The notes below the pieces were generated by a model that saw only the letters and a program-made list of their open reading frames with translations, ran no database searches and was not told where the DNA came from. The position numbers and the translations under genes were made by a program. DNA of 64,000 nucleotides from IMG/VR virus record IMGVR_UViG_3300013372_003978, positions 23,688 to 87,687 of that record; one strand, 5' to 3'. The stretch is from a virus. Shown piece by piece: positions 12,691 to 43,190 of this stretch; positions within the stretch are counted from its first letter, which is position 1, and each line of letters starts with the position of its first letter.

Positions 12691-12698
12691 AATAAATA
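12691..12698 (-). promoter_or_regulatory. Putative late promoter TATTTATT
   Basis: Sense-strand AAATAACATATTTATT 16 nt before the ATG at 12674; the same motif recurs upstream of many structural genes. Confidence 0.6.
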
Positions 12699-12745
12699 TG
12701 TTATTTAATAATAAAATTACTTTAAATATGATTAATTTTAAAATA

Positions 12746-14611: not shown

Positions 14612-14613
14612 AG

Positions 14614-22104: not shown

Positions 22105-22682
22105 TGGGTTATGATATTAATGAGATGAGAAGAAAACTATTAGACGCTTTTGATTCTAATAGTAATTATACCTTAGAAAATTTTAATAAAGAATTTGATG
22201 GTAATATGTCAATGTCTAATAATGACGATTTTAAAATTTCTTTATCTTTTAAAAACGAATCAACAAATCCTGACCCAGAATATGCAACAGTTGGGTCATC
22301 TGGTTTTGATTTGAGAGCTAATCTAGAAACATCAATTTCATTACCACGTGGACAAACTGCAATAATACCTACTGGATTATTTTTTGAAATTCCAGATAAT
22401 TTTGAAATTCAAGTTAGACCTCGTAGCGGATTAGCAGCTAAAAATGGTGTTACTGTGTTAAACACACCTGGAACTATAGATGCTGATTATCGTGGTGAAA
22501 TTAAAATTATACTAATAAATTTAGGTAATGATACTTTTGAAATTAATCATGGTGATAGAATTGCTCAAGGTATAATGGCAGCAGTTACAGCTAAAAATTA
22601 TGTAAATCTAATTAAAGTTAATAATATTTCAGAAAATACTGAACGAGGTACTGGTGGATTCGGTAGTACTGGGACTAAATAA
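22104..22682 (+). CDS. dut: Trimeric dUTPase
   Basis: SGFDL, RPRSGLA, GTIDADYRGE, GDRIAQ and RGTGGFGSTG motifs. Confidence 0.97.
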   Translation: MGYDINEMRRKLLDAFDSNSNYTLENFNKEFDGNMSMSNNDDFKISLSFKNESTNPDPEYATVGSSGFDLRANLETSISLPRGQTAIIPTGLFFEIPDNFEIQVRPRSGLAAKNGVTVLNTPGTIDADYRGEIKIILINLGNDTFEINHGDRIAQGIMAAVTAKNYVNLIKVNNISENTERGTGGFGSTGTK

Positions 22683-22689
22683 AATAAAA

Positions 22690-27770: not shown

Positions 27771-28513
27771 TGGAAAATTTTACAATTGCAATAACAACAT
27801 TTGCTAAAAGATATAATTACATTGTTAATTTAATACCACAAATTAGAAATTACAGTGATAATAAAATCCTATTGATTATCAACGGTGAAAAGGATGGTGA
27901 TTTTGATGAAGAATATAGAAAAAACATTCTAGAACTATGTGCTAAGTACAATAATGTATATCCAATTATGTTTGTTGAAACTAGAGGTTTATGTAAAATG
28001 TGGAACACTGGTTTAATTATGTCAGATAAAGAAGATGTTTTAATACTTAATGATGATATTGAAATCCTTTCTGGTGATATTGTTAAGTATGTATCTTCAC
28101 ATATTAAATCGCCAGAATATAAAGGATTAACTAAAATTAACGGTTCTTTTTCTCATTTTGTGACTAATAAAGTTATCATGGATAAACTTGGTTATTTTGA
28201 TGAACGATTATTAGGTTTTGGTGAAGAAGATGGTGATATTTCTTATAGATTTATTAAAGCAGGTATTAATATAAATAACATTTATATTAATGGTATCATT
28301 AATATAGTTTCTAATATAAGACATGAACACATAACAGCTGGTATTGGTAAATACTCTAATTTTAATCGTCAATTTATTTATGGTGAAAAATATTCAGTGG
28401 ATATGTCTAGCCCTTATAAAGGTATGTTTGATACACCAATGAATCAAAACTTAGAAGACATCAATCAATACCCACATGAAAATTTTTTTAGAGAAAATAA
28501 AGATAAATTGTAA
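27770..28513 (+). CDS. GT-A fold glycosyltransferase (GT2/GT7-like)
   Basis: WNTGL, LILNDDIEI, GYFDERLLGFGEEDGD. Confidence 0.8.
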   Translation: MENFTIAITTFAKRYNYIVNLIPQIRNYSDNKILLIINGEKDGDFDEEYRKNILELCAKYNNVYPIMFVETRGLCKMWNTGLIMSDKEDVLILNDDIEILSGDIVKYVSSHIKSPEYKGLTKINGSFSHFVTNKVIMDKLGYFDERLLGFGEEDGDISYRFIKAGININNIYINGIINIVSNIRHEHITAGIGKYSNFNRQFIYGEKYSVDMSSPYKGMFDTPMNQNLEDINQYPHENFFRENKDKL

Positions 28514-29724
28514 TGGAGATAAAGCAAATCACTGAAATTAATAAAACAGATATCTCAAAACTATTTGAAAAAGATTCTAATGGTCGAGAAATTAACATTT
28601 ATGAATTAAGGGATTCAATGGTTACTGGTGAATCCTTATATTATCCAAATACGTTATTATATAATGGGTCTTTATATAACCCAATAAACGAAACAACTAT
28701 GTCATTAAAAAATGTTGAGGTTGATGATAATTTTAATTTTACATTAAAAAAACCAATTAAAACCGAAGAAAAGTCGGTTTTTTTCTTTATATATAATATG
28801 GATAATTATTTTCATTTTGTTTATGATTCGTTGCCATATTTAATAACCTTTAACAAAATAAAAGAAACTAACCCAGAAACTAAGTTACTAATGAATTACC
28901 CTGCTGGCAAAAATCGATTCTATAAATTTGTTTTAGAATTTTTAGATATATTGGGTATTAGAGAAGATGATATCATTATTGCTGATGAAAATACAAATTA
29001 TAAGAAGGTTTATATTTCAACATCTTACACACATGATTTTGATTCAAATTTACCACCTAGAAATGAAATATATGATTTTTACCAAGAAATAATTGATAAA
29101 GTAAAAATAGATGATACTGATTTACCTAAAAAGATTTACATTTCTAGAAGAAGTTGGTTACATGGTGATATGAGCAATATTGGTACTAACTATACTACTA
29201 GACGTAAATTAGTTAATGAAGATGAATTAGTTAAATTTTTGATGAGCAAAGGATACCAAGAAATTTTTACCGAAACCTTTACAACTGAACAAAAAATAGC
29301 TATATTTAAAAATGCTGAAAGTGTGGTTGGTGCTATTGGTGGTGGAATTTGTAATGTTTTGTTTTCTAAACCAGAATGTAAATTAACTGCATTAATTTCA
29401 CCATATTTTTTAGATGTTAATGAACGTTTTAAATATTCATTAAACAAAGTTAATTTAACGTTATTTGACGATGTTAAAAACACTGAAACTACGGTATTTA
29501 AAAAATATATGAGAGTTAAATGTAATGATATTATTGGGGAAATAATAGACATACAAAATGATGACATAACAATAACTTACAGTGATGTTAAATTAGCTGG
29601 TTGGAATAGTGAAAATGAATATAAAACAATAACGAAAAAAACTTATGAGTGTGTTAGATTAGATGAAGGGTTAAATTCATCGTGGAAAATAAACTTAGAT
29701 AAACTTAAAGAATTTTATGATTAA
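28513..29724 (+). CDS. GT61 (DUF563) family glycosyltransferase
   Basis: NYFHFVYDSLP, KIYISRR, RKLVNEDEL, IFKNAESVVGAIGGGICNVLF. Confidence 0.8.
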   Translation: MEIKQITEINKTDISKLFEKDSNGREINIYELRDSMVTGESLYYPNTLLYNGSLYNPINETTMSLKNVEVDDNFNFTLKKPIKTEEKSVFFFIYNMDNYFHFVYDSLPYLITFNKIKETNPETKLLMNYPAGKNRFYKFVLEFLDILGIREDDIIIADENTNYKKVYISTSYTHDFDSNLPPRNEIYDFYQEIIDKVKIDDTDLPKKIYISRRSWLHGDMSNIGTNYTTRRKLVNEDELVKFLMSKGYQEIFTETFTTEQKIAIFKNAESVVGAIGGGICNVLFSKPECKLTALISPYFLDVNERFKYSLNKVNLTLFDDVKNTETTVFKKYMRVKCNDIIGEIIDIQNDDITITYSDVKLAGWNSENEYKTITKKTYECVRLDEGLNSSWKINLDKLKEFYD

Positions 29725-30523
29725 TTATGTTGTTTATGGAAATACAGATTATTTGGATGTTTTAGAAATTCAAACTGATTACATATATGGTCGTGGTAAT
29801 ATTACATTATTTTTAAATAATAATGATTTAGAAATACAAAACCTAACATCAAAATATGATAGGATAATATATTACAATAATGATGATACATACGCTAAAA
29901 GATTATTATCCTGTATTCAACAAATAAAAGATGATTATTTTTTATTTTTACACGATATTGATGTTTTATTAAATGTTGATGATAAAATGATTAATAAATT
30001 TTATGATTTTTTAAGGGTTAATAATTTTGATAGAATTGATTTAAAACATTCTGATAATAAAATATCAAACCTAATTATTGAATATAATCCAGATAATAAA
30101 CCTAGTGAATGGGAACCTAAATTATCTGAAGAATTAACAGATGGCCTTTATCTAATAAAACAAGATAATCCAAATGATTACATTTATAATGTTAACCCAT
30201 CAATATGGAAAAAAGATTCATTTATTAAATTGCTAAGTAATTTTACACATAAAAATTATAGAACAATAGAAGAAATGGATGTGCAATTATTTTCAAAACA
30301 ATTTAAGGTTTTTAAATTAACTGCTAATACTAAAAAATTATGTGGATATTTTAATTGTGTTGACGGATTTCAATTTTTACATATTAGTCACAGTGGTAAA
30401 TTATTACCATTGAATAAAAATTTTGTGACAACATATGGTCAATCATACGTAGATATAAGTGATGAATACATTAAAATAGTAGATAAATACAACCTAACGA
30501 AATCAAATAAGTGGATAATATAA
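29717..30523 (+). CDS. Putative glycosyltransferase (paralog of 31441-32253)
   Basis: FLHDIDVL and YIYNVNPSIWK. Confidence 0.55.
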   Translation: MINYVVYGNTDYLDVLEIQTDYIYGRGNITLFLNNNDLEIQNLTSKYDRIIYYNNDDTYAKRLLSCIQQIKDDYFLFLHDIDVLLNVDDKMINKFYDFLRVNNFDRIDLKHSDNKISNLIIEYNPDNKPSEWEPKLSEELTDGLYLIKQDNPNDYIYNVNPSIWKKDSFIKLLSNFTHKNYRTIEEMDVQLFSKQFKVFKLTANTKKLCGYFNCVDGFQFLHISHSGKLLPLNKNFVTTYGQSYVDISDEYIKIVDKYNLTKSNKWII

Positions 30524-30524
30524 A

Positions 30525-31439
30525 ATGAGCTTAGAACAAATAAAAGAATGTAAATATATCTCTAGTGTGGGGTTATTAAAAACAATAGACGAATTAAATC
30601 TGATTACTTATGATAAAACACCATCAAATATTGTGCACGATTATTCAAAACTACAAAATGGTTATGATGGTGTTTGCATTTATATAAAATTTTCTAACGT
30701 AAGAGAATTTATGTATCATGTATTACCAAGAATAAATTATAAATTTATATTAGTAACTGGTGATGGTGATGAAACTATGCCAAATGATATGTTTGATATG
30801 ATAACATTTAATAATATAATAAATAATGAAAATATATTACATTGGTATTCGGTTAATTGTATTGAAACCATTCACCCTAAATTTTCTTTAATACCTATTG
30901 GTGTTAATTTTCATTCATTAACTTATGGTGAATTTTGTGGTTGGCATAATACATCTCAAACACCATTGGAACAAGAAAATATAATAGAAGAAATTAGAAA
31001 TAATAATTTACCATTTCATTTAAGAATTCCTAAATGTTATTCTAATTTTCATTTTGTAACTTATCAAGAATTTGGAAATCCTAGAAAAGAAGCTATGGAA
31101 AAAATACCACAAGATTTGGTATTTTATGAACCTACTTTAATACCTAGATTCAATACATGGGATAATCAAGCCAAATATGCCTTTGTATTATCACCAATGG
31201 GTCATGGAATGGATTGTCATAGAACATGGGAAGCGTTAATGTTGGGTTGTATTGTTATTGTTAAAAAATCAATAATTGATAGTTTATATGAAGAGTTACC
31301 TGTTTTGATTGTTGATGAATGGGAAGATATTACACAAGAACTTTTAAATGAAACCATGGAAAAATTTAAAGATATGGAGTTTGATTATGACAGAATAACA
31401 TTAAAATATTGGGTAAATAAAATTAAATCTTTAAAATAA
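30525..31439 (+). CDS. Exostosin-like (GT47-related) glycosyltransferase
   Basis: FVLSPMGHGMDCHRTWEALMLGCIVIV. Confidence 0.75.
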   Translation: MSLEQIKECKYISSVGLLKTIDELNLITYDKTPSNIVHDYSKLQNGYDGVCIYIKFSNVREFMYHVLPRINYKFILVTGDGDETMPNDMFDMITFNNIINNENILHWYSVNCIETIHPKFSLIPIGVNFHSLTYGEFCGWHNTSQTPLEQENIIEEIRNNNLPFHLRIPKCYSNFHFVTYQEFGNPRKEAMEKIPQDLVFYEPTLIPRFNTWDNQAKYAFVLSPMGHGMDCHRTWEALMLGCIVIVKKSIIDSLYEELPVLIVDEWEDITQELLNETMEKFKDMEFDYDRITLKYWVNKIKSLK

Positions 31440-31440
31440 T

Positions 31441-32253
31441 ATGATACAATACGAAGTTCACAAACATGTTAACCATGATACTTTAAGTGATGGTCTTGTA
31501 AATTATGTAATTTATAGTCATTCTAGTTTTTTGGATGTGTTAAATATTCAACTAGATTATATAATTGGTAAGGGTCATTTAACATTGTTTATAGATGAAA
31601 ATAACCATGACTTAACTCATATTTATAAAAAATTTGATAGGGTTGTTTTTTATAATGGTAATCTTACTTATGGTAATAAACTTTTAAGTTGTTTAAATCA
31701 AATTGATTATGATTATTTTGTTTTCATACACGATAATGATATTCTTTACAATGTAGATAATCAAAAAATGTTAGAGTTTATAGATTTTTTAAGAGTTAAT
31801 GACTACGATAGAGTTGATTTCCAATTAGCTTATGATTTTAATAGAGAACTTAGCCATACAATTGAAGATGATGGCTTATATCTAATTAAATCATCTAATA
31901 TAGACACAACAGCAAACGGATACATCTACAACGTTAACCCATCAATTTGGAAATTAGAAACATTAAAAAAAATAATGCAAACATATAGTCATAGAGATTA
32001 TAGAACAATAGAACATCCAGAAGTACAAGAATTTTGTTTACAATTTAATATTTTTAAACTGTATTCTAAAAAACAATACAATTGTGGATATTTCATTTGT
32101 TTGGAACCTTTTAAATATCTACACATAACACATAGCCAACATTATCTTAATCTAGCTAGTTTATCAAAAGAATCGTATAAAGATATTGAAGAAGTGTACG
32201 AAATAATAATCAACAAATATAAGTTAAGAAATTCTAACAAATGGATAAATTAA
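31441..32253 (+). CDS. Putative glycosyltransferase (paralog of 29717-30523)
   Basis: FIHDNDIL and YIYNVNPSIWK. Confidence 0.55.
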   Translation: MIQYEVHKHVNHDTLSDGLVNYVIYSHSSFLDVLNIQLDYIIGKGHLTLFIDENNHDLTHIYKKFDRVVFYNGNLTYGNKLLSCLNQIDYDYFVFIHDNDILYNVDNQKMLEFIDFLRVNDYDRVDFQLAYDFNRELSHTIEDDGLYLIKSSNIDTTANGYIYNVNPSIWKLETLKKIMQTYSHRDYRTIEHPEVQEFCLQFNIFKLYSKKQYNCGYFICLEPFKYLHITHSQHYLNLASLSKESYKDIEEVYEIIINKYKLRNSNKWIN

Positions 32254-33032
32254 AAGATAAAAATAAACCAATTTTTATAATAGCCCATAAATTTTATAGA
32301 GGTTATGAATCTTACATCGAATACTATATAAGTAATATAAATAAATATTATGAAGATGCTTTAATAATTGTTGTGGATAATAATTCAACATATGTTGAAG
32401 ATATTTTTAGCACTTTGAGAAAATTTAATAACGTTATTTTATTAAAGAATGATATCGATTGTAAATTTGAAATTGGTGCTTATAAACTTGGTTTAAAATT
32501 TATTATTGATAATGATTTTATAAGTGATTATAGTTATGTTGTTTTAACTCAAGATACATTTATACTTAAAAATAAACTAGATTTTAACTTATTAAATGAA
32601 CAAAATATAACAGCAGCCCCAATTAATTCATTCACAATGGATGATATATTCAAAGATATTAGAGATGAAATTTTAATTAAACTGGGATTGTTTAATAATT
32701 TAGATAAAATTACATTTTGTTGGTGTAATAGTTTTATTATAGCTACTAATAAGGCTCAACAACTATTTAATTATTTTAAAGACATTATAATTACCACAAG
32801 AGATGAAAGTGGTGCCTCTGAAAGGTATTTAGCTAGAATTTTATGGGAATTAAATGATTATAAAAATAACGACATTGATGGTGATATGACAGCTTTAAAA
32901 TATAGTTGGAATGGAAAAATTAACCCTTCACCAAAATATGATTGTCATAATGTAAATGTTTATGATGAAAATATAACAACATATTTTGTAAAAAAAACAC
33001 AACAAAAAACTGAAAAAACTTGTGATAGATGA
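32241..33032 (+). CDS. Putative GT-A glycosyltransferase
   Basis: IVVDNNS, FEIGAY, LTQDTF, ERYL. Confidence 0.55.
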   Translation: MDKLKDKNKPIFIIAHKFYRGYESYIEYYISNINKYYEDALIIVVDNNSTYVEDIFSTLRKFNNVILLKNDIDCKFEIGAYKLGLKFIIDNDFISDYSYVVLTQDTFILKNKLDFNLLNEQNITAAPINSFTMDDIFKDIRDEILIKLGLFNNLDKITFCWCNSFIIATNKAQQLFNYFKDIIITTRDESGASERYLARILWELNDYKNNDIDGDMTALKYSWNGKINPSPKYDCHNVNVYDENITTYFVKKTQQKTEKTCDR

Positions 33033-33913
33033 TAATAGATAAAATTAAAAATAGTTATATAATCTACACGAATAATCAAGTAGTACATACCAGAGAATAT
33101 TATAATTATTGTGTTTCTTTATTAAAAAAATGGTTAAATGACATAGATGATGATTTAAACATTATTTTTGGTGATTATAATTTTGATTTTGATAATCCTA
33201 ACAAAATAATTAAGGTAGATATTCAATGTGAACATACATTGGTTAAAAATGGTGGTCGTTCAGTTACTAATAAAATATATGGTAACGTTAAAAGTGATGA
33301 TGGTTATTATCTGGTTAGAATTGATAAATTTAATTATCTTAATTCTTTAGATATGGTAATAGAATATAGCTTACCAAATATTGAAAATATTAAAACTAGT
33401 GGTAAATTTAACGATTATTTAAATAAAGTTTTTTATGTTGCCCCTATGTTATATAAATCAAAATTTGATGGTGTTAAAACTGATATAATCACCTTATTTG
33501 ACCATAATAATAATCATAGAAGGTCTAACATATTAAATAAGTTAAAAGAATATGGGGTAAATAATAAAATAGTGACTAATTGTTTTTCACATGAATGTTT
33601 ATTAAATACTTACGATAAAACTAAAATAATGGTTAATGTTCACCAAACTGACCATCACCACACTTTTGAAGAATTAAGAGTTTTACCTGCACTATTAAAT
33701 GGTGTTATTATTATAAGTGAAGATGTTCCACTTAAAGAAGCAATACCATATAACGAATATATCATATGGTGTAACTATGAAGACATTCCTAGTAAAACCT
33801 TAGAAGTTATGAATAATTATACTTATTATTTTGATAAATTATTTACTAATGGTAATATTGATGTTATCTTAGATAAAATTAATATTAATAATTTAGAAGC
33901 GTTTAAAAGATAA
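33029..33913 (+). CDS. Putative GT-B glycosyltransferase
   Basis: KIMVNVH...FEELRVLPALLNGVIIISE, C-terminal GT-B signature. Confidence 0.6.
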   Translation: MIIDKIKNSYIIYTNNQVVHTREYYNYCVSLLKKWLNDIDDDLNIIFGDYNFDFDNPNKIIKVDIQCEHTLVKNGGRSVTNKIYGNVKSDDGYYLVRIDKFNYLNSLDMVIEYSLPNIENIKTSGKFNDYLNKVFYVAPMLYKSKFDGVKTDIITLFDHNNNHRRSNILNKLKEYGVNNKIVTNCFSHECLLNTYDKTKIMVNVHQTDHHHTFEELRVLPALLNGVIIISEDVPLKEAIPYNEYIIWCNYEDIPSKTLEVMNNYTYYFDKLFTNGNIDVILDKININNLEAFKR

Positions 33914-33916: not shown

Positions 33917-35371
33917 ATGAGGGTTGCATTACTAATAGCTGGATATTTAAGAAGTTATGAAACAAATATTAAATACATTCATGATGAAATCATTAATAAA
34001 TTTAATGATGTTGATATATATTTGCACATAACTAAAGATGAAAATACTGAAGATAAATACTTTAATCAAATTCAAGAAACAGATATTAAAAAAATAATCG
34101 ACACATTAAATCCAACAACAACAATAATAGAAAACAATATTGTTTATAACCCTGATAAAAGAATTAATAATGTTATGAATCATTGGGGTAAATTATATAA
34201 ATTAAACCAACTTAAATCAATTAAAGAAAATGAAACATCTAATTATGATTTGGTTATTAGATATCGATTAGATTTAAATATACTTTCTAAAAACGTTTTT
34301 AATTTTGATTTAGAAAAGGGTGTTATTTATCTACCTAAAGATGCTAAGATTGATAAAGTTAAATTAACTAACCCAAACGATAAATATTTATGTGATGCGT
34401 TTGCTTTTGGTGATTCTGAATCAATGGATAAGTATTTTAATATCTATAGTTATTATGGTAATCATATGTTACCAGTTTCAGAAACTGCTTTATATGATTA
34501 CTTAACAAAAAACAAAATAAACCATAAATTAATTAATATAAATTATAATTTTGTTTTATCTAAATGCAATGTTTTTGCTATCTGTGGTGATTCTGGTTCT
34601 GGAAAATCCACACTAAGTAATTTATTGAAAAATGGTTATAGTGATTCATTTATGTTAGAATGTGATAGATACCATAAATGGGAAAGACATAATGAAAATT
34701 GGGATGGAATGACTCATTTAAATCCAGAAGCTAACTACATAACAAAAATGGAAGAAGATATCTTCAATTTAAAACTTGGAAATGATATTTATCAGGTTGA
34801 TTATGACCATCATAGCGGTAAATTTACTGAAAAACAATTAATCAATCCATCAGATAATTTAATTGTTTGTGGTTTACATAGTTTATATGGTGATAATAAC
34901 TTATATGATGTTAAAATATTTATGGATACTGATGATTCTCTTAAGAAAAAATGGAAAATTAAACGTGATGTAATTGAACGTGGTTATACTGTAGATAAAG
35001 TATTAAATAGTATAGAAAAAAGACAAAACGATTTTCAAGAATATATCACACCACAAAAAGATAATGCTGATTTAATAATTAAATTTTTTACTAGAGATAT
35101 TATTGATTTTAATGATTTTGAAAGAGAAGAAAAATTAAGTTTGGAGGTTTCAATTAACAATAAATGTAAAAATCTGAACTATATTTTAAGAACTTTTAAC
35201 GATTTAAATATTGATTATACTATTATCAATGATGATAAATTTACCAAAATAATCTTTGATGAATATGTTGAATTAAACGTGGTAGATAGAAAAATTTTTA
35301 ACAACAGTAAAACGAACACATTTTACGATTATATTTTATATTTTATTTTTTCCCTTAACTTTACTAATTAA
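33917..35371 (+). CDS. Fusion: glycan-locus transferase-like N-domain + phosphoribulokinase/uridine kinase family C-domain
   Basis: N-domain: RVALLIAGYLRS, YDLVIRYRLDL, DAFAFG. C-domain: P-loop GDSGSGKST, DRYH, NPEAN, YDHHSG, GLH, RDVIERG. Confidence 0.75.
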   Translation: MRVALLIAGYLRSYETNIKYIHDEIINKFNDVDIYLHITKDENTEDKYFNQIQETDIKKIIDTLNPTTTIIENNIVYNPDKRINNVMNHWGKLYKLNQLKSIKENETSNYDLVIRYRLDLNILSKNVFNFDLEKGVIYLPKDAKIDKVKLTNPNDKYLCDAFAFGDSESMDKYFNIYSYYGNHMLPVSETALYDYLTKNKINHKLININYNFVLSKCNVFAICGDSGSGKSTLSNLLKNGYSDSFMLECDRYHKWERHNENWDGMTHLNPEANYITKMEEDIFNLKLGNDIYQVDYDHHSGKFTEKQLINPSDNLIVCGLHSLYGDNNLYDVKIFMDTDDSLKKKWKIKRDVIERGYTVDKVLNSIEKRQNDFQEYITPQKDNADLIIKFFTRDIIDFNDFEREEKLSLEVSINNKCKNLNYILRTFNDLNIDYTIINDDKFTKIIFDEYVELNVVDRKIFNNSKTNTFYDYILYFIFSLNFTN

Positions 35372-35390
35372 TTTTATTTTCGTATATTTG
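35360..35390 (+). promoter_or_regulatory. Bacteroidota-type promoter, probably leaderless transcript
   Basis: TTTA-N19-TATATTTG (35383-35390); the ATG follows after 3 nt. Confidence 0.55.
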
Positions 35391-35393
35391 CAT

Positions 35394-36521
35394 ATGGAAA
35401 ATAAAATTAGAAAAAATTGTATCTTTTGTGAAAATGAACTAAGAAAAGATTTTTTTAGTAATGATTTAAACAACTATGTTGCTCACTACTCAGTAAATCA
35501 AGACGCTAATAATGATGATATGCAAAACATACCTTTTAATGTTTGTGTATGTGATTATTGTAAAACTCCACAATTAAAATATTTAGGCGATTTAAATGAA
35601 ATTTATAAACTTAACCATGCTGATAGTACTGGTAAGATTATGAATAGTTTACACCGTGAAAACTTATCATTAATTTTAAAATATAAAGATTCAATAACTA
35701 ACATTATTGAAATAGGAAGTTCTAAAGGTATCTTAGCTGACGAAGTAATTAAAAACATTGATTTAACTTATTATATAATAGAACCTAGTTATTTTGGTGA
35801 CATTAATGATAAGAAAATTATAATCCCAGACTTTTATGAAAATGTGGATGATTCAGTAATAAATGCTAATACTATGGTTATATCACATGTGTTTGAACAT
35901 TTTTACCAACCAATGGAGATTCTAAATAAAATAAGTAATAATAAAAAGATTGAAAATTTCTTTTTAGTTTTTCCTGATTTAGAATACTACATAAATAATG
36001 ATGTTTTACATGTCTTAAATACCGAACATACATTTTATGTCGATAATCAATTTTTAATTAATTTATTAAAACATGTTGGTTTTGATTTGATAGAGCAAAG
36101 AAACCATGAAAACCATTCAGTATTGTTCTATTTTAAAAGAAATGACTCTGAAATTAATAACAATAAAATCGATTTTAAAAATACCAATTATGATTTGGAT
36201 ATATACTATTCAAAAATAAAAAATACTGTTGATAAATTCAACACTGTTATGTACAAAAATAAAGATAAAGAAATCTATCTTTGGCCAGCATCTATCCATT
36301 CATTATATTTATTAAATTTTGGTCTAAAAATAGAAGGTGTGACTGGATTTTTAGATAATAGTAAACTTAAAATTGGTAAGAAAATGTATGGAACCAATTT
36401 AACTGTTTTTGATTTTAAAGATAAAGTTACTGAAAAAGATGACAATGTTATTATCCTAGTAAGTGGTGGGGTGTTCAATCGTGAAGTTCAACATCAATTA
36501 ACAATAAATAAAAGTATTTAA
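35394..36521 (+). CDS. SAM-dependent NDP-sugar C-methyltransferase-like protein
   Basis: N-terminal Zn motifs CIFC/CDYC, IIEIGSSKG, SHVFEH, EHTFY, DNSKLKIGK; ATG at 35394. Confidence 0.75.
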   Translation: MENKIRKNCIFCENELRKDFFSNDLNNYVAHYSVNQDANNDDMQNIPFNVCVCDYCKTPQLKYLGDLNEIYKLNHADSTGKIMNSLHRENLSLILKYKDSITNIIEIGSSKGILADEVIKNIDLTYYIIEPSYFGDINDKKIIIPDFYENVDDSVINANTMVISHVFEHFYQPMEILNKISNNKKIENFFLVFPDLEYYINNDVLHVLNTEHTFYVDNQFLINLLKHVGFDLIEQRNHENHSVLFYFKRNDSEINNNKIDFKNTNYDLDIYYSKIKNTVDKFNTVMYKNKDKEIYLWPASIHSLYLLNFGLKIEGVTGFLDNSKLKIGKKMYGTNLTVFDFKDKVTEKDDNVIILVSGGVFNREVQHQLTINKSI

Positions 36522-36522
36522 T

Positions 36523-37200
36523 ATGAATATGGTTAAAATAACTAATAATTTAATATCCCTATCTAAAGCCATATCAAAGTACTGTGTTGGTATGGAAGGT
36601 AATATATCTGGCAAAATAGATGGAAATTCTTTTTTAATAAAAGCCAGTGGTCAAAATTTATCAAATTTAAAAGAGGATGGTCTAGTAGAATTCTCAATGG
36701 ATGGTATTCAATTAAATAACCCAGATAAAAAAGGTAGCATGGAATTAACTTTCCATACTTTTTTATTAGGGTTTGAAGATATTAATTACATATCACATAC
36801 ACACCCAACAAACACTTTAAAAATTTTATGTACCAATTACGCAAATGATTTTGCTAATAAGCGATTATTTCCAGACCAAGTAGTTTTTAATGGTGTTAAA
36901 GCATGTTTAGTTCCTTATGCTAAACCTGGTGAAAAATTAACTGAATTAATTAAACAACACATTAATTGGTTCATTGAAGAAGAAAAATATTTTCCAAAAT
37001 TAATTTTATTAAAAAACCATGGTATTATTGCGTGTGGTAATTCTATTAATGAATGTATCATTGCTACTGATATTTGTGAAAAAGCTGCAAAAATTTTTAT
37101 TGGGGGTATTGGATTAGGTGATATACATTTTTTAAGTGATAAAGAAATAAATGATTTAATTATTGATGATAATGAAAAATATAGAAAAAATTTATTATGA
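36523..37200 (+). CDS. Class II aldolase/adducin family (FucA/AraD-like)
   Basis: EGNIS, IKASG, SMELTFH, HTHP, LKNHG. Confidence 0.85.
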   Translation: MNMVKITNNLISLSKAISKYCVGMEGNISGKIDGNSFLIKASGQNLSNLKEDGLVEFSMDGIQLNNPDKKGSMELTFHTFLLGFEDINYISHTHPTNTLKILCTNYANDFANKRLFPDQVVFNGVKACLVPYAKPGEKLTELIKQHINWFIEEEKYFPKLILLKNHGIIACGNSINECIIATDICEKAAKIFIGGIGLGDIHFLSDKEINDLIIDDNEKYRKNLL

Positions 37201-37943
37201 AAACAGAAGGAATAAGTTTAGGGTGGAATTGTTCTGCCGCTCAGGATGGTCTTAAATTAGGTTTAAGGAATACAAAAAGTAATGGGTATAAAACATGTCC
37301 GTTTGATATGATGATAACCAATTATGTGGGTATGTGTAAATGTATTGAAGATGATTTTAAATACTTTTGCGACCCAAATTATTTAGAACTAAGAAAAGCC
37401 CCTAAAATGTCTCCACATATCCCAAATCAAAAAGATGATGAAATGTGGGTTTTTAATTCTTATTATAATTTTTATTTTAATCATGAATCACCATATCATG
37501 GTAATCTTTATTTAAATGAGCAATGGAGTGGACCAAACCATTTTGTCAATAACAATTTTGAAAAATTCGTTGAAAGGTATGAAAGACGAATTAATAATTT
37601 TAGGGGGTATATGACTGGTTTAGAACTAGTTAATTTTATCGTATGGCGTTATAACGCAATACCTTATGAATTAGTGGATATTATTAAAGAAAAATACCCT
37701 AATTTAAATTTTAAAGTTAATACTATTATAGATTTTGGTAGACATACTGTTGATTGTTTAATAACTAACACACCAGAAGCTTCAAAAGAATATGAAATGG
37801 ATTATCTTAGATATATGAACATAACTGAAAATGAATACCCAGAAGAATTTTCCAGGTATAGAAATGAATTAATAACTAAGGATATTAAAAATGATGAACA
37901 TATCATTTTAATTTATCCAACTAAAATCTCTAGTTTAAACTAA
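37197..37943 (+). CDS. DUF1796-like (putative papain-like) protein
   Basis: ISLGWNC...PFD...FNHE...ERYERRINNF. Confidence 0.55.
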   Translation: MKTEGISLGWNCSAAQDGLKLGLRNTKSNGYKTCPFDMMITNYVGMCKCIEDDFKYFCDPNYLELRKAPKMSPHIPNQKDDEMWVFNSYYNFYFNHESPYHGNLYLNEQWSGPNHFVNNNFEKFVERYERRINNFRGYMTGLELVNFIVWRYNAIPYELVDIIKEKYPNLNFKVNTIIDFGRHTVDCLITNTPEASKEYEMDYLRYMNITENEYPEEFSRYRNELITKDIKNDEHIILIYPTKISSLN

Positions 37944-38242
37944 TGAAAACAAGAATAATTTACGTAGACATTGATGAAACTATTTGTGAAACACCAGAAC
38001 CTAGAAACTATTTTAATGCTGAACCGATAAAAGAAAATATCGCTAAAATTAATGAGTTGTATGATGAAGGTAACACAATAGTTTATTGGACTGCTCGTGG
38101 TAGTAGAACACAAATTAATTGGTATGATTTAACTAAACAACAATTGATTGAATGGGGTGCGAAACACCATGAATTAAATGTAAGTAAACCATACTATGAT
38201 TTGTTTATTGATGACAAAACACTTAGAATTGAAGAAATATGA
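37943..38242 (+). CDS. Small HAD phosphatase (BcbF/EcbF capsule-biosynthesis type)
   Basis: VDIDETIC, WTARG, KP..DLFIDDK; 99 aa, capless. Confidence 0.75.
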   Translation: MKTRIIYVDIDETICETPEPRNYFNAEPIKENIAKINELYDEGNTIVYWTARGSRTQINWYDLTKQQLIEWGAKHHELNVSKPYYDLFIDDKTLRIEEI

Positions 38243-39162
38243 AAAATAAAAAAATAATACTTATCCCACCAAATTTAGCATATGGTGATTGCTTATCCGT
38301 TATAGGATTAGTTTATTATTTGCTAGAATATTATGAATCAGTTTATTTTTATTTGGGTGAAACTGATACTTTATTAAATTATTATTCTGATTATTTTTCT
38401 AATGACCCATTATATAATCAAAGGATTTTTATTGTTGTAAAACCAGAAATTTTAATTAATAATGGTGAATATGGTGAATATCATATATGTAATACTTTAA
38501 CTGGTGATTGGTTATCGGCAAAAACTAATTATGCTGAACTTCCAAATATCAATAAAGAGTTTTACTTCAATGATTTAAATCCAATTTATAATAAATTAAA
38601 AATTCCTAACGAACATTTATGTTTACCTAATAAACATTTACCTTCTTTAGAGTTGGAAATTAATCATTTATTTTATTATGAATTGATTGGTTTAAACAAT
38701 AACGTTAGAATGGATTACTTCAATTATGAAAGAAATTTACAAAAAGAACGGATGTTTAAAAATCAAATACTTGCAAATTATGGTTTAGAACCTAATAGCA
38801 AATATAATATAATAAACGACCCTACAGGACAATTTAATGAAATCATACCTTACATTAAAAATGGGTTTAAAACAATTAACATTAACTTTTTAGCACCTAG
38901 TATTGGTAATTTATTAACTTTGTTGGAAGAAGCTGAAAGCATACATTTTATTGAAGGATGTAACGTTAACTTTTTTTATCATTGTCAATATAAGAATATT
39001 TTTAAATATGATAAAAAAATATATTTTCATACTTGGGTTCGCAATAGACATTGGTTATATCCAAATATGAATTTAGATTACGCATGGAAAATGATGGATA
39101 CACCAAAATTACTAAATTGGGAATTTATCTTTGATAAAAATGAAACACAAAATATAATTTAA
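38239..39162 (+). CDS. Hypothetical protein, possibly glycosyltransferase
   Basis: N-terminal LAYGDCLS motif; lies within the glycan locus. Confidence 0.45.
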   Translation: MKNKKIILIPPNLAYGDCLSVIGLVYYLLEYYESVYFYLGETDTLLNYYSDYFSNDPLYNQRIFIVVKPEILINNGEYGEYHICNTLTGDWLSAKTNYAELPNINKEFYFNDLNPIYNKLKIPNEHLCLPNKHLPSLELEINHLFYYELIGLNNNVRMDYFNYERNLQKERMFKNQILANYGLEPNSKYNIINDPTGQFNEIIPYIKNGFKTININFLAPSIGNLLTLLEEAESIHFIEGCNVNFFYHCQYKNIFKYDKKIYFHTWVRNRHWLYPNMNLDYAWKMMDTPKLLNWEFIFDKNETQNII

Positions 39163-39165
39163 AAT

Positions 39166-39657
39166 ATGAAATTAATATCCCATAGAGGAAATATAATCGG
39201 ACCAAATTTAAAAAGAGAAAACTCACCATCATATATTGACACTGCAATATGTGCTGGTTATGATGTTGAAGTGGATATAAATTTTACAAATGGTAAATTT
39301 TATCTAGGTCATGATACACCTGATTATGAAATAACTGAAATTTGGATGACTAAAAGAAAATATAACATATGGTTTCACTGTAAAAATTTAGAAGCTGCAT
39401 CAGAGCTTATCAAATTACAAAAAAAATATGATATAGAGTTTAAGTTTTTTTGTCATTCATCTGATTCTTTTATTTTAACTAGTAATGATTATATTTGGGT
39501 TCATGATTTATCCTTAGATTTAAATAACAAATGTATTATTCCATTATTAAGTGATACTGATGTTTTAAAATATAACGGTAAATTAGTTTATGGTGTGTGT
39601 ACTGATTATATTAGTTTAGCAGCATTTAATTTAAAACAAAAAGGATTATACAAATAA
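39166..39657 (+). CDS. Glycerophosphodiester phosphodiesterase-like protein (short)
   Basis: ISHRGN, EN, DVEVD, LGHD, HCKN, GVCTD. Confidence 0.75.
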   Translation: MKLISHRGNIIGPNLKRENSPSYIDTAICAGYDVEVDINFTNGKFYLGHDTPDYEITEIWMTKRKYNIWFHCKNLEAASELIKLQKKYDIEFKFFCHSSDSFILTSNDYIWVHDLSLDLNNKCIIPLLSDTDVLKYNGKLVYGVCTDYISLAAFNLKQKGLYK

Positions 39658-39662
39658 AAAAA

Positions 39663-41246
39663 ATGAATAAAAATATACAATTAATTATACCTATGTCTGG
39701 TGTTGGTAAACGTTTTATCGATGCTGGTTACGCTGATACTAAATCACTTATTATTGTCGATGGAAAACCAATAATTCAACACGTAGTTGAAATGTTTAAT
39801 AGCCCTGATGATGTTATTTTCATTTGTAATGAAATACATTTAAGAGATACTAATATGAGAGAAATATTAGAATCAATATCGCCAAATTGTAAGATATTTT
39901 CTGTATCTAATGAGAATAGAAAAGGACCTGTTGATGCTGTTTATCAAATAGCTGAATATATCGATGACAATAGAGAAGTTATCGTTAGTTATTGTGATTA
40001 TGGTACTTATTGGAATTACGACAAATTTTTAAAGGAAACTAGAGAAGCAAATTCTGATGGTGCTATTGCATGTTACACTGGATTTCATCCACACATGTTA
40101 GGTTCTGATAATTATGCATTTGTTAAAATGGAAGATGATAAAGCAGTAGCGATTCAAGAAAAAAAACCTTTCACTGATAATAAAATGGCTGAATTAGCTT
40201 CTAATGGTACTTATTATTTTAAAACTGGACGTATAGTAAAAGATAAGTTTAAAGAATTAATAGATTTAAACCATTCATTAAATAATGAATTTTATGTTAG
40301 TTTAGTTTATAATTTATTAATTAAAGATGGTTTATTAGTTACAACCTTTTTAATTGAAAACATGTTACAATGGGGAACACCTTATGATTTAGAAAACTAT
40401 AAAGGTTGGTCTGAGTATTTTTCTAATATGAAAATCACACAACCAAAAATTAAAAACCCAAAAGGTACGACTCTTGTTTTACCAATGGCTGGTAGAGGAA
40501 GTCGTTTTGAAGATGAAGGGTATCCATTACCAAAACCATTATTAGAAGTTGATAAACTGCCAATGATATTACAAGCAGTTAATTGCTTACCAGAATCAGA
40601 CAATAATGTTTTTATGTGTTTAGAAGACCACATTAAAAATTTTAATATTGACAAAAAATTAAGTGAGTATTACCCTAACACTAAAATTGTTTTAATAGAT
40701 AAAACAACCGAAGGTCAAGCTTGTACATGTGAAATAGGTATTAATAAAACAAACATTGATTTAGAATCACCAATATTAATTTCTGCGTGTGATAATGGAG
40801 TTTATTACGATTCACAAAAATATTTAGATATGGTTAATGATGAATCTATAGATATTATTGTGTGGACATTTAGAAATAATCAAGCTAGTAAAACAAGCCC
40901 TAATTCGTATGCGTGGTTAGATGTTGATAGTGAAGGATTTGTTAAACATGTTTCATGTAAGAAATTTATTTATGATGACCCTTTGAAAACACATGCTATT
41001 ATTGGTACTATGTTTTTTAGAAAGAATAAATATTTCATGGATGGTTTAAAAATGAACTATGAAGAAAATATAAGAACCAATGGTGAATTTTATGTTGATG
41101 ATGTATTAAATCAAAATATAAAAAACGGATTAAAAGTAAAAGTTTTTGAAGTTAAAAATTATATTTGTTGGGGGACACCCAATGATTACAAAACATATCA
41201 ATATTGGTATAATTATTTTAATAAAATAACTAATCGCATTGACTAA
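39663..41246 (+). CDS. Tandem two-domain sugar nucleotidyltransferase-like protein (BcbE-like)
   Basis: IPMSGVGKRF...WGTPYD followed by LPMAGRGSRF...PKPL...NGEFYV...WGTPND. Confidence 0.8.
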   Translation: MNKNIQLIIPMSGVGKRFIDAGYADTKSLIIVDGKPIIQHVVEMFNSPDDVIFICNEIHLRDTNMREILESISPNCKIFSVSNENRKGPVDAVYQIAEYIDDNREVIVSYCDYGTYWNYDKFLKETREANSDGAIACYTGFHPHMLGSDNYAFVKMEDDKAVAIQEKKPFTDNKMAELASNGTYYFKTGRIVKDKFKELIDLNHSLNNEFYVSLVYNLLIKDGLLVTTFLIENMLQWGTPYDLENYKGWSEYFSNMKITQPKIKNPKGTTLVLPMAGRGSRFEDEGYPLPKPLLEVDKLPMILQAVNCLPESDNNVFMCLEDHIKNFNIDKKLSEYYPNTKIVLIDKTTEGQACTCEIGINKTNIDLESPILISACDNGVYYDSQKYLDMVNDESIDIIVWTFRNNQASKTSPNSYAWLDVDSEGFVKHVSCKKFIYDDPLKTHAIIGTMFFRKNKYFMDGLKMNYEENIRTNGEFYVDDVLNQNIKNGLKVKVFEVKNYICWGTPNDYKTYQYWYNYFNKITNRID

Positions 41247-41259: not shown

Positions 41260-42252
41260 ATGAAAAAGAAATTAGCCTTAATACTAGGAGCCAATGGTCA
41301 GGATGCGTCTTATTTGGCTGAATTATTAATAGATAAAGATTATGAGGTTCATGGTACTATAAGAAGAAATTCAGTACCAGAATCTCAAACAACCAGAATC
41401 CAATCACTTCGAGATAATAATCAAATAACCCTACATTATATGGACCTTACGGACCCTATTAGTGTAGAATCAATTATTAATAATTTAAAACCTAATGAAA
41501 TATATCATTTAGCTGCTCAAAGTCACGTACAAATTAGTTTTGAATTACCAAAATACACACTAGATGTTAATGGTGGTGGCACACTTGCTGTTTTAGAAGC
41601 AGTAAGAAAATTCTCACCTAAATCTAAAATATATCATGCGGCAACGTCTGAAATGTTTGGTAATTCTATCGATGATGACGGTTATCAACGTGAAACAACA
41701 CGCTTAGCACCAGTAAGCCCATATGGTTGCAGTAAATTATATGCTCATAGTCTTTGTAATAATTATAGAAATGCGTATGGTATGTTTATAACTTCTGGGA
41801 TTTTATTTAATCATGAAAGCCCTAGGAGAGGAATTAACTTCGTAACCAACAAAGTAGTACTTGAAGCTGTAAAGATTAAACTAGGGCTCTCTAATGAGCT
41901 TGTATTGGGTAACCTAGATGCTGTTAGAGATTGGGGTCATGCAAAAGACTATGTTGAGGGGATGTGGAGAATGTTACAACAAGAAGAACCTGATGATTAT
42001 GTATTGGCTACGGGAGTATCAAAAAGTGTTAGAGATTTAGTAGAATATGTATTTGGTAAATTAGATTTAGATTCAACCAAATATGTTAAAAGCAATGAAA
42101 AATTTCAACGTGCTGAAGAATTACATTTCCTTAAAGGAGATACGTCTAAAGCTAAAGAAAAATTAGGGTGGAAGCCCATATATACTTTTGAAACAATGTT
42201 AGATGAAATGATTCACCATTGGTTTGAAATACTTAGACCAAAAAATTCATAG
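41260..42252 (+). CDS. gmd: GDP-mannose 4,6-dehydratase
   Basis: GANGQDASYL, LAAQSHVQISF, SPYGCSK, LFNHESPRRG, RDWGHAKDY. Confidence 0.97.
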   Translation: MKKKLALILGANGQDASYLAELLIDKDYEVHGTIRRNSVPESQTTRIQSLRDNNQITLHYMDLTDPISVESIINNLKPNEIYHLAAQSHVQISFELPKYTLDVNGGGTLAVLEAVRKFSPKSKIYHAATSEMFGNSIDDDGYQRETTRLAPVSPYGCSKLYAHSLCNNYRNAYGMFITSGILFNHESPRRGINFVTNKVVLEAVKIKLGLSNELVLGNLDAVRDWGHAKDYVEGMWRMLQQEEPDDYVLATGVSKSVRDLVEYVFGKLDLDSTKYVKSNEKFQRAEELHFLKGDTSKAKEKLGWKPIYTFETMLDEMIHHWFEILRPKNS

Positions 42253-42254
42253 AT

Positions 42255-43190
42255 ATGGGTAGATTATTAGTAACAGGTGCCAATGGATTAGTTGGTTCCC
42301 AATTTAAGGGTGATTTAGTGCCAATAACCTCAAAAATGGTTGACCTTAGAGATAAAAAAAGCACTGAAGACATTATTAATTTTTATACCGATAAAGAAAA
42401 ACAAGGAATGTTTGCTATTGATAAAATTATTCACTGTGCTGGTAAAGTAGGTGGTGTTGGTGGAAATATGAATTATAAAGGAGATTTTTTTTATGATAAT
42501 ATTATGATAAATACTAATGTTATTGAAGCAGCTAGAAAATCTGGTGTGGAAAAATTAGTTGTATTCTTATCAACATGTATTTTTCCTAATGATGTTGAAT
42601 ATCCATTAACTGAATCTAAAATACATTTAGGTTCACCACATCCTTCTAATGATGCTTATGCTTATGCTAAAAGAATGGCAGACGTTCAAATAAGAGCTTA
42701 TAGAGAACAATATGGTTTAAAATACACGTCAGTTATTCCAACTAATATTTATGGTCCTAATGATAACTTTGATATTAAAAATGGTCATGTTATACCTTCA
42801 TTAATACATAAATGTTATTTAGCTAGAGAAAACAAAACTGATTTATATATTTGGGGTTCTGGAACACCTTTAAGAGAGTTTATTTTTTCTAAAGATGTTG
42901 CAGAATTAGTTACATGGGTAATAAATAATTATGATGATTTTGAACCATTAATACTATCAACTTCTGAGGAAATATCAATTAAAGATGTTGTTAATGTTAT
43001 CACTGAAAATATGAATTTTAAAGGTAATGTTATTTTTGATAAAACTAAACCAGATGGTCAATTTAGAAAACCTAGCGATAATTCTAAATTAAAATCCTTT
43101 TTACCAAATTTTAATTTTACTCCTTTTGAAGATGGGATTAAAGAAACTATTGAATGGTTTGAAAAGAAATATCCTAATATTAAACAATAA
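42255..43190 (+). CDS. fcl: GDP-L-fucose synthase family epimerase/reductase
   Basis: AGKVGG, STCIFP, YAYAKR, PTNIYGPNDNF, HVIP, WGSGTPLREF. Confidence 0.92.
   Translation: MGRLLVTGANGLVGSQFKGDLVPITSKMVDLRDKKSTEDIINFYTDKEKQGMFAIDKIIHCAGKVGGVGGNMNYKGDFFYDNIMINTNVIEAARKSGVEKLVVFLSTCIFPNDVEYPLTESKIHLGSPHPSNDAYAYAKRMADVQIRAYREQYGLKYTSVIPTNIYGPNDNFDIKNGHVIPSLIHKCYLARENKTDLYIWGSGTPLREFIFSKDVAELVTWVINNYDDFEPLILSTSEEISIKDVVNVITENMNFKGNVIFDKTKPDGQFRKPSDNSKLKSFLPNFNFTPFEDGIKETIEWFEKKYPNIKQ

Follow-up and report, generated by a model that had tools for sequence, protein, structure and literature searches.

A conserved phage gene cassette that may make a nucleotide-activated five-carbon sugar from ribulose 5-phosphate

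Why would a large phage carry a phosphoribulokinase (PRK)-type kinase, an enzyme of the Calvin-cycle type, among genes for glycan synthesis? The question is raised by positions 33917-41246 of a 64,000-nucleotide stretch of viral DNA (the window), which covers positions 23,688 to 87,687 of the IMG/VR record IMGVR_UViG_3300013372_003978. Eight open reading frames (ORFs) lie here on the + strand with their ends overlapping or nearly abutting, and an earlier note, made from the letters of the sequence alone, had read them as a possible ketose or rare-sugar activation sub-pathway. The gene products it described, namely a PRK fusion protein, an aldolase-family enzyme, a capless HAD phosphatase, a GDPD-like protein and a doubled nucleotidyltransferase (NTase), are all present where it had placed them, as indicated by ORF, Pfam, fold and motif evidence (Table 1). 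Our analysis suggests, with a probability of roughly 0.6, that the cassette makes a nucleotide-activated five-carbon sugar, derived from ribulose 5-phosphate (Ru5P), for the building of a glycan.

Gene content and conservation of the cassette

Two sets of viral loci were collected from IMG/VR. A search with the PRK fusion protein gave 18 loci, all of which hold homologues at 50-90% identity. GT61, aldolase, HAD and GDPD-like homologues are present in every one of them, and the double NTase is present in 17, the remaining locus being cut short. A search with an alignment of the double NTase gave 210 relatives, from which 80 loci were kept; 49 of these are at least 20 kb long and carry 38 distinct NTase DNA sequences. 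Since these 49 were found through the NTase, counts of co-occurrence with it are biased. PRK, double NTase, HAD and GDPD-like genes occur together in 49/49, the DUF7796 domain in 45 and GT61 in 42, and an aldolase-type gene is found in 46 (39 in a short form and 7 in a long form of 355 aa). Related cassettes are also present in the cyanophages S-SM2 and Bellamy, which carry the NTase pair, GT61, aldolase, HAD, GDPD-like protein and a stand-alone DUF7796 protein at 22-65% identity, and in which GT61 (36-37% identity) adjoins the cassette.

The gene set is conserved far beyond chance. Its core consists of the PRK fusion, aldolase, HAD, GDPD-like and NTase genes of 33917-41246 together with GT61, and the double NTase is the best marker of the cassette. 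The module range proposed in the earlier note therefore holds in part: it encloses these five core genes, leaves GT61 outside and takes in three accessory genes, which encode a methyltransferase-like protein, a DUF1796 protein and a 307-aa protein.

The long viral loci fall into two versions. Version A, found in 42/49, has a mini-HAD and a mini-GDPD-like protein, and the short aldolase goes with it; version B, found in the other 7, has a 230-aa HAD_2 protein, a 196-aa GDPD/PLC-like protein and the long 355-aa aldolase. The versions never mix, as no locus among the 49 has both HAD/GDPD-like pairs or neither, and two coherent, non-mixing versions suggest that the same reactions are kept. Gene fusions moreover tie the late pathway steps together. 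GDPD, NTase and NTase form a single open frame in 11/19 type-B ('bacterial-type') viral loci, and further fusions join NTase-NTase-GDPD (P0248) and GDPD-GT61 (P0266).

The same NTase alignment identified 159 relatives in one-per-species GTDB bacterial and archaeal genomes; 80 loci were kept, 44 of them at least 20 kb long. Carriers include Flavobacteriaceae, Campylobacterota, Melainabacteria, Chlamydiae, Leptospira, Halobacillus, Jeotgalibacillus and Fusibacter. In the 44 long loci, the NTase is accompanied by a PRK fusion in 41, HAD_2 in 37, the long aldolase in 43 and the 196-aa GDPD-like protein in 42, the NTase itself being present in 44; a 232-aa GT2 occurs in 43 and GtrA, at the threshold used, in 23. 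About 40 of the 44 hold the PRK, NTase, HAD and GDPD-like types plus an aldolase-type gene. The gene set thus recurs in many other loci (18 PRK-fusion, 49 long viral and 44 long bacterial), a co-occurrence on which the earlier note had made its proposal depend. In bacteria, the PRK protein is ~690 aa long and consists of a polytopic membrane domain and a PRK; the membrane domain has a weak GT87 match, by which it would be a putative GT-C-type transferase. The 196-aa bacterial protein, for which the closest Atlas clusters and PGAP name the PI-PLC/GDPD family, carries at its N-terminus the H-R..E-D..H-D pattern that is also seen in the phage GDPD-like protein. Comparison of the phage and bacterial GDPD-like profiles gave a modest result (72% probability over 40 columns), and their equivalence is suggested mainly by their mutually exclusive occurrence.

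Table 1 Features of the cassette and its accessory genes in the window (aa, amino acids; AF2, AlphaFold2)
Feature	Coordinates	Strand	Status	Basis or length
GT61-family glycosyltransferase	28513-29724	+	core in viral cassette	PF04577 E 8.6e-18, 65.3 bits vs cut-off 27
GT-A/PRK fusion protein	33917-35371	+	core	484 aa
DUF7796-type GT-A-fold N-terminal domain, putative glycosyltransferase (residues 1-215)	33917-34561	+		AF2 and Foldseek
Phosphoribulokinase-type P-loop kinase domain (residues 219-484)	34571-35371	+		PF00485 E 9e-33 at residues 219-390
Methyltransferase-like protein, weak assignment	35388-36521	+	accessory	Methyltransf_23 23.2 bits, Methyltransf_14 20.1 bits, both below cut-off
Class II aldolase/epimerase-family enzyme, short phage form	36523-37200	+	core	PF00596 E 4e-25, 89.1 bits vs cut-off 22.2
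DUF1796 protein	37197-37943	+	accessory	PF08795 E 1.3e-10
Capless (C0) HAD phosphatase, BcbF-like	37943-38242	+	core	99 aa; TIGR01689 sub-threshold, HAD motifs
307-aa protein, probably a phage glycosyltransferase	38239-39162	+	accessory	ESM Atlas lead
Short GDPD/PI-PLC-fold protein	39166-39657	+	core	163 aa; AF2 pLDDT 81; Foldseek
Internally duplicated sugar-phosphate nucleotidyltransferase	39663-41246	+	core	527 aa; PF00483 E 2.7e-13, 50.5 bits vs cut-off 21.2

Enzymes of the cassette and the route they suggest

On the kinase domain of the fusion protein, the PRK profile NF005655 scored 181.4 bits (profile positions 10-206 of 326), compared with 76 and 64 bits for two udk models, and a PDB search returned the cyanobacterial PRK 6hzk at E 2e-33 (119 bits, ~186 residues) versus E 9e-8 for a uridine kinase. 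The Ru5P-phosphate-site and catalytic residues of Chlamydomonas PRK (CrPRK), given as Arg64, Tyr103, His105, Arg159, Asp160 and Arg164 in the consulted part of a preprint (bioRxiv 10.1101/422709), were transferred to the cassette kinases via the 6hzk alignment. They are kept in 10/10 phage and 59-60/60 bacterial cassette kinases, and the position of Arg67, a residue that not all PRKs keep, varies. Likewise, G224, K230 and S/T231 of the Walker A P-loop (GxxGxGKS/T) are kept in 10/10 phage and 57/60 bacterial homologues. Judged by these sequences, the domain is clearly of the PRK kind and not uridine-kinase-like, as the earlier note had maintained, and because the Ru5P-site residues of true PRKs are kept, it probably makes ribulose 1,5-bisphosphate (RuBP), as a glycan precursor. 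The automatic name that JGI and PGAP give to the fusion protein, 'uridine kinase', is probably wrong, and so is 'phosphoheptose isomerase', under which the phage HAD appears in PHROGs and in cyanophage records.

The N-terminal part of the fusion protein (residues 1-215) was modelled with a pLDDT of 88 and a pTM of 0.89. Its top Foldseek matches are GT-A enzymes, namely BoGT6a (4ayl, E 7e-7), alpha-3GalT (alpha-1,3-galactosyltransferase), B3GNT2 and the PBCV-1 capsid glycosyltransferase A64R (2p6w). The window protein gave no PF25072 (DUF7796) row at E<=0.01, and its homologues P0103 and P0108 (~53% identical) reach 28.4 bits, slightly over the cut-off of 27. Stand-alone relatives of this domain are found in S-SM2 (SSM2_209, 28% identity) and Bellamy (gp094).

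The aldolase-family protein matches PDB 6vop at E 1e-10. Against the curated equivalogs (FucA, AraD, MtnB, OtnC and ribulose-1-phosphate aldolase), it stayed far under all cut-offs, the best being NF043034 with 55.6 versus 250 bits; NF053831, for ribulose-1-phosphate aldolase, gave E 1.5e-10 and 40.9 bits at a cut-off of 300. Eight residues (N27, S42, G43, S72, E74, H92, H94 and H166) do not vary among the 22 phage and bacterial sequences compared, and we take these to correspond to the metal ligands of FucA (the His-x-His, the third His and the Glu) and to its phosphate-binding Asn and Ser-Gly. In addition, the phage and bacterial proteins share a private C-terminal tail, E218..R221 (E-K-Y-R). 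On this alignment, the cassette aldolases form a separate subfamily with its own C-terminal tail.

The phage HAD matches TIGR01689 (EcbF-BcbF) at E 1.2e-7 with 31.7 bits, far under the cut-off of 162, and PDB 9iqw, a 'capsule biosynthesis protein', at E 1.3e-13. HAD motifs I-IV (D9-x-D11-x-T13, T50, K82, D86 and D91) are shared without change by 12 sequences, one bacterial BcbF-like protein included. The TIGR01689 profile had no match in three cassette-bearing bacterial genomes, and it matched in 1/401 sampled genomes of the class of genome G001 (E<=1e-10). For the bacterial cassette HAD, the best NCBIfam match is NF053830, ribulose-1,5-bisphosphate 5-phosphatase (E 1.6e-48), below the cut-off.

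The 163-aa GDPD-like protein and two of its homologues gave no PF03009 match at E<=1, and the protein has no sequence match in PDB. With its model, Foldseek placed GDPDs at the top (E 5e-3 to 3e-2, TMq 0.36-0.45), led by 1v8e, 1zcc and 2pz0 (E 5e-3 to 1e-2, TMq 0.38-0.45), and HisA/HisF-type isomerase barrels were matched weakly; the length of the protein does not suffice for a complete eight-stranded barrel. H6, R7, E18, N19, E35, D37, H49 and D50 are invariant, and the resulting H-R..E-D..H-D pattern is presumably the phosphodiesterase motif (His-Arg, a Glu/Asp metal site and His-Asp). The family comprises 2589 representative clusters at E<=1e-3. The NTase consists of two collinear halves that are 30% identical to each other (E 1e-36). 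The nucleotide-binding signature P-M-(S/A)-G-x-G-x-R-F...K is invariant in both halves in 9 sequences, and the protein matches PDB 4evw at E 5e-9.

These enzymes can be arranged into a route. The PRK domain would phosphorylate D-ribulose 5-phosphate to RuBP, and the small HAD would take off the 5-phosphate to leave ribulose 1-phosphate (Ru1P), which is able to cyclise. The aldolase-fold enzyme would then remodel the ketose 1-phosphate, most likely as a C3 or C4 epimerase acting via a metal-bound enediolate, and the double NTase together with the GDPD-fold enzyme would produce the nucleotide-activated donor. Finally, the PRK-fused GT-A (DUF7796) domain and GT61 would transfer the sugar onto the phage-made glycan built by the surrounding 27-kb cluster. 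In the bacterial version, transfer would be carried out by GT2 and GtrA with the membrane domain as a GT-C-type transferase. As soluble GT61 and GT-A enzymes stand in for GtrA, GT2 and the membrane domain in the phage, transfer there would presumably be cytoplasmic and straight from the nucleotide sugar.

As to the product, we tentatively favor a xylulose- or ribulose-type ketopentofuranose, at somewhat less than even odds. We know of no biosynthetic genes for such a sugar. A ketose is favored because every recognisable enzyme acts on ketose phosphates and because the cassette has no isomerase family. Xylulofuranose, moreover, is known, though genetically unexplained, from chlorovirus glycans and from the O95 and O97 antigens of E. 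coli; the consulted part of a review of giant-virus glycans lists it for chloroviruses MT325 and TN603, with undefined configuration (PMC9614988). A further reason is that a BcbF-type HAD, DUF7796 and NTase recur together in a polysaccharide locus of genome G050, and BcbF belongs to a gene trio for the addition of fructofuranose, according to the part consulted of its source (PMC13552107). A more specific version, which we regard as doubtful, is that the cassette supplies the route, so far missing, to nucleotide-activated xylulofuranose or ribulofuranose by way of a 1,2-cyclic phosphate and two NTase steps. The first NTase half would make an NDP (nucleoside diphosphate)-1-ketose from epimerised Ru1P, the GDPD-fold enzyme would use the neighboring anomeric hydroxyl to form the 1,2-cyclic phosphate and would open this to the 2-phosphate, and the second NTase half would then make a true anomeric NDP-ketofuranose donor. 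Such a route would explain the constant retention and frequent fusion of two NTase domains and a phosphodiesterase-fold domain.

Several points weigh against the proposed route. The kinase domain lacks the C-terminal third of a classical PRK (6hzk aligned at chain residues 9-197 of 333), and its NF005655 score of 181 bits does not reach the cut-off of 236. The phage HAD belongs to the BcbF type and not to the RuBP-phosphatase type, and its assumed role as a RuBP phosphatase follows solely from its mutually exclusive replacement by HAD_2. The aldolase-fold enzyme could cleave its substrate instead of epimerising it, and 3 type-A viral loci have no aldolase within 21.5 kb. PRK phosphorylates C1 of the ketose, which is not the anomeric position, so an extra step, either phosphate migration or ketose-to-aldose isomerisation, would be needed before transfer of the GT61 or GT2 type. 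Furthermore, the S-SM2 and Bellamy cassettes have no PRK, with PfkB or GHMP kinases nearby, and for this reason the entry substrate may differ between lineages. In general, we observe the gene set, its conservation, the folds and the residues, and from these sequences we infer the chemical steps, their order, the nucleotide and the acceptor.

Other explanations share the early steps and differ in the product. The cassette may enter in the same way, from Ru5P through RuBP to Ru1P, and then isomerise Ru1P to the 1-phosphate of an aldopentofuranose such as D-arabinofuranose by means of the GDPD-like or aldolase-fold protein, so that the donor would resemble NDP-arabinofuranose. GT61 and GT2 enzymes do use anomeric NDP-sugars, an aldose 1-phosphate is anomeric without phosphate migration, and the HisA/HisF-type barrels to which the fold search weakly matched the GDPD-like model would suit an isomerase. 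The bacterial GtrA, GT2 and membrane GT-C-like domain also resemble polyprenyl-phosphate-sugar systems, of which decaprenyl-phospho-arabinose is an example, and arabinofuranose is present in chlorovirus N-glycans, as the consulted part of the review reports (PMC9614988). Nevertheless, we consider this unlikely: the cassette has no recognised aldose-ketose isomerase family, its invariant H-R..E-D..H-D pattern is a phosphodiesterase and not an isomerase motif, and the constant pair of NTase domains and their fusion to a phosphodiesterase-fold domain would be left unexplained. Alternatively, a pentulose- or pentitol-phosphate could be donated (the CDP-ribitol or CDP-xylulose type, CDP being cytidine diphosphate) and attached through a phosphodiester bond in the manner of teichoic acids, with the GDPD-fold enzyme handling phosphodiester bonds. 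CDP-xylulose is an intermediate of CDP-arabinitol synthesis in S. pneumoniae 17F, Ru1P and a nucleoside triphosphate (NTP) would give the NDP-1-ketose directly with no extra chemistry, and the GDPD-fold enzyme is invariably present. Even so, the core set lacks a reductase as well as any phosphotransferase of the TagF, LicD or fukutin type, its conserved transferases are glycosyltransferases (GT61, GT-A and GT2), and the bacterial GtrA/GT2/membrane-domain arrangement points to a polyprenyl-phosphate-linked glycosyl donor, which makes this alternative decidedly unlikely.

A further set of explanations removes the early enzymes from sugar activation altogether. Phages carry metabolic genes, and PRK, HAD and aldolase might form a catabolic or host-rewiring shunt that drains Ru5P to dihydroxyacetone phosphate (DHAP) and glycolaldehyde or supports host carbon metabolism, the sugar genes being unrelated. 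The three enzyme types are those of a haloarchaeal pathway, as described in the part consulted of PMC9700705, and the sub-threshold matches to NF053830 (bacterial HAD) and NF053831 (phage aldolase) are in keeping with it. The trio, however, never occurs without the double NTase and GDPD-like genes in the 49 long viral loci, and while that count carries the bias of an NTase-based search, the PRK-fusion search still gave the NTase in 17/18; PRK is physically fused to glycosyltransferase-type domains; no RuBisCO was found in the record, which is ~26% complete; and a glycolaldehyde reductase or similar gene is absent. Given the NTase and GDPD-like co-occurrence and the PRK-glycosyltransferase fusions, we rejected this shunt as very improbable. 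Less credible still is a uridine or cytidine kinase that feeds NTP pools for the nucleotidyltransferases. The JGI and PGAP name and the Pfam family shared by PRK and uridine kinase speak for it; it was rejected on the PRK-over-udk scores, the agreeing PDB matches and the retained PRK-specific Ru5P-site residues, and the cassette-bearing bacteria additionally keep a separate housekeeping enzyme of the same kinase family (~220-245 aa). A role in carbon fixation was also rejected: no RuBisCO large subunit was found in the 87.7-kb record, which is ~26% complete, the carriers include heterotrophs, and the link to NTases and glycosyltransferases is constant. Both the heterotrophic carriers and this constant link agree better with a role in nucleotide-sugar synthesis. 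The earlier note's statement that the PRK-like domain is not a carbon-fixation gene stands on these grounds, with the correction that the Ru5P-site residues are kept and that RuBP is probably made.

If the cassette does make an activated sugar from Ru5P, it would provide the first gene-level candidates for the synthesis of an activated five-carbon keto-sugar. It would also mean that phages, giant-virus bins and heterotrophic bacteria put a Calvin-cycle-type kinase to a use other than carbon fixation, and PRK-family genes in metagenomes should consequently not be counted as carbon-fixation markers. The cassette is widespread and, in the literature found, unstudied; our literature searches, with subscription journals outside their coverage, returned no description of it.

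Glycan cluster, accessory genes and plasmid-borne copies

The source is a large uncultured T4-like phage. The window, a part of the 87.7-kb record (CheckV completeness ~26%), encodes a T4-like major head protein, a portal, a prohead protease, a terminase piece, tail-fibre-like proteins and a DNA polymerase, and its G+C content is 23-35%. Among GenBank phages, the capsid protein has its closest relatives in huge uncultured phages, in Microcystis phage Mel-JY01 and in Flavobacterium phages, with which it shares ~41-44% identity across its C-terminal 40%. The major head protein (55144-56985, - strand) is 613 aa long, and its match to the T4-like capsid family is confined to approximately residues 315-600.

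The cassette lies within a single, tightly packed + strand block at 20224-47054 (~27 kb), composed mostly of glycosyltransferase-like and sugar-nucleotide genes, which looks like a complete phage glycan factory and further supports the view that such factories are encoded by large phages themselves, as they are by giant viruses. At least 10 glycosyltransferase-like genes are present (GT4-like, a GT2/GT4 fusion, several GT2-like and GT61), and the block ends close to PhoH and a sigma-factor-like gene. Within its start, 21541-23685 encodes an HD-domain protein (weak), a dUTPase and an IMPDH/GMP-reductase-family protein. Between GT61 and the PRK fusion, at 29717-33913, are five conserved ORFs with no family above the curated Pfam cut-offs and no NCBIfam match. 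One of them (30525-31439) has a single weak, sub-threshold RXYLT1_C match; the ORFs at 29717-30523 and 31441-32253 share one matching gene in loci L007 and L008 and appear to be paralogues. Directly 3' of the cassette, 41260-43190 encodes a GDP-mannose 4,6-dehydratase (E 1e-113) and a GDP-L-fucose synthase-like protein, by which the phage would additionally make GDP-fucose or a 6-deoxyhexose. Homologues of these genes accompany the cassette in just 21-24 of the 80 viral loci.

The adjacent GDP-fucose genes, the inserted methyltransferase-like gene, DUF1796 and the extra glycosyltransferase are peculiarities of the present locus. The methyltransferase-like gene sits between the PRK fusion and the aldolase, and its product has N-terminal CxxC pairs, matches phrog_24523 at E 1e-22 and has no PDB relative; homologues occur in 0/18 PRK-fusion loci and 4/80 viral loci (L119, L156, L157 and L168). 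Chlorovirus xylulofuranose has been found in methylated forms, according to the consulted part of the glycan review (PMC9614988), and this methylation may or may not be related to the gene. DUF1796 homologues occur in 5/18 PRK-fusion and 11/80 viral loci. Homologues of the 307-aa protein are found in 5/18 and 21/80, respectively; the protein has no Pfam or NCBIfam match, and its closest ESM Atlas cluster, which serves as a lead only, is named 'Glycosyltransferase family protein' (0.98; structure TM 0.86).

The cassette is present on many contigs that were binned as giant viruses; these GVMAG-named loci are L121, L004, L148, L150, L152, L157, L159, L163, L166, L168, L170, L171, L175, L176 and L179. 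In the one GVMAG bin that was searched, for one of five such loci, capsid genes of nucleocytoplasmic large DNA viruses (NCLDV) lie on contigs other than the cassette contig, which does not in itself prove a giant-virus origin of the latter.

The whole cassette is also carried on 33-kb plasmids in 2 of 5,426 complete E. coli genomes. One, from a human stool isolate, is NZ_CP145712.1 (locus L183), in which a complete bacterial-type cassette at 6022-14984 adjoins an IS26 remnant; the plasmid of a bullfrog isolate has a cassette 100% identical to this copy. The carrier strains are E. coli S1-CAM-01-A and ES3. In Azospirillum brasilense and Hirschia baltica, the NTase is likewise located on plasmids. 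Its presence on an E. coli plasmid and in several cultured bacteria makes the cassette directly testable; candidate carriers in culture are Halobacillus halophilus, Eudoraea adriatica DSM 19308, Zeaxanthinibacter enoshimensis DSM 18435, Jeotgalibacillus marinus DSM 1297, Hirschia baltica ATCC 49814 and Azospirillum brasilense.

Comparison with known systems

The NDP-glycero-manno-heptose pathway employs GmhA, the kinase HldE or HddA, the HAD phosphatase GmhB and the nucleotidyltransferase HldE or HddC. The proposed route has the same logic: a sugar phosphate is converted by a kinase to a bisphosphate, a HAD strips the distal phosphate, and an NTase and a glycosyltransferase follow. However, the cassette kinase is of the PRK type and not PfkB or GHMP, its proposed substrate is a ketopentose and not a heptose, and the cassette has a class II aldolase-fold enzyme in place of the SIS isomerase, an extra GDPD-fold enzyme and a duplicated NTase.

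In the haloarchaeal non-carboxylating pentose bisphosphate pathway, both a HAD that turns RuBP into cyclised Ru1P and the FucA-type Ru1P aldolase that acts next have been characterised; the pathway is catabolic, starting from nucleosides via ribose-1,5-bisphosphate isomerase and ending in DHAP and glycolaldehyde (PMC9700705, as far as consulted). Similarly, the cassette pairs a HAD, proposed to act on RuBP, with a class II aldolase-fold enzyme, and NF053830 is the best match of the bacterial HAD. In the cassette, by contrast, RuBP would come from PRK, the matches all fall under the equivalog cut-offs, the phage HAD comes from another HAD subfamily, and the genes are welded to nucleotidyltransferases and glycosyltransferases.

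The cassette kinase shares its P-loop and its Ru5P-site and catalytic residues with plant and cyanobacterial PRKs (PF00485; NF005655; PDB 6hzk, 6kev, 6gve and 6h7g). Unlike these enzymes, it is missing the C-terminal third, which holds the dimer-interface sheet, it has Ser at the position of the regulatory P-loop cysteine, and in the phage it is fused to a GT-A domain within a glycan cluster, with no RuBisCO in the record.

The earlier note had named a connection between BcbE/BcbF-type genes and fructose in the type B capsule of Pasteurella multocida, and the literature bears this out: BcbE, BcbF and BcbG are linked to the addition of a fructose side chain, and in the part consulted the paper assigns no domains to BcbE or BcbG (PMC13552107). 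The phage HAD, which is minimal and capless, falls within the broad HAD subfamily of BcbF, with the low TIGR01689 score given above; the P. multocida sugar is a ketohexose, unlike the pentose proposed here. The G050 locus (L182; G050:C3:1255500-1275400, ~8263-15526) is a gammaproteobacterial polysaccharide locus of the ABC-transporter type. It encodes an NTase/APH-type kinase fusion (555 aa), a BcbF-like HAD (83 bits), a second, PDB 4evw-like NTase, a DUF7796 protein, a GT2, an ABC-2 permease and an ATPase, and has no PRK, aldolase or GDPD-like gene. It therefore shares with the phage a BcbF-like HAD, two NTase domains, a kinase and DUF7796. A homologue search with its DUF7796 protein gave 39 proteins, none of them named Bcb or Kfo.

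Gtr-type periplasmic glycosylation uses three components, GtrA, GtrB and a GT-C. The bacterial cassette resembles this system in having GtrA, a GT2 and a polytopic membrane domain, with its weak GT87 match, fused to PRK. The phage cassette differs in that it has no GtrA, GT2 or membrane domain and carries the soluble GT61 and GT-A-type enzymes in their place.

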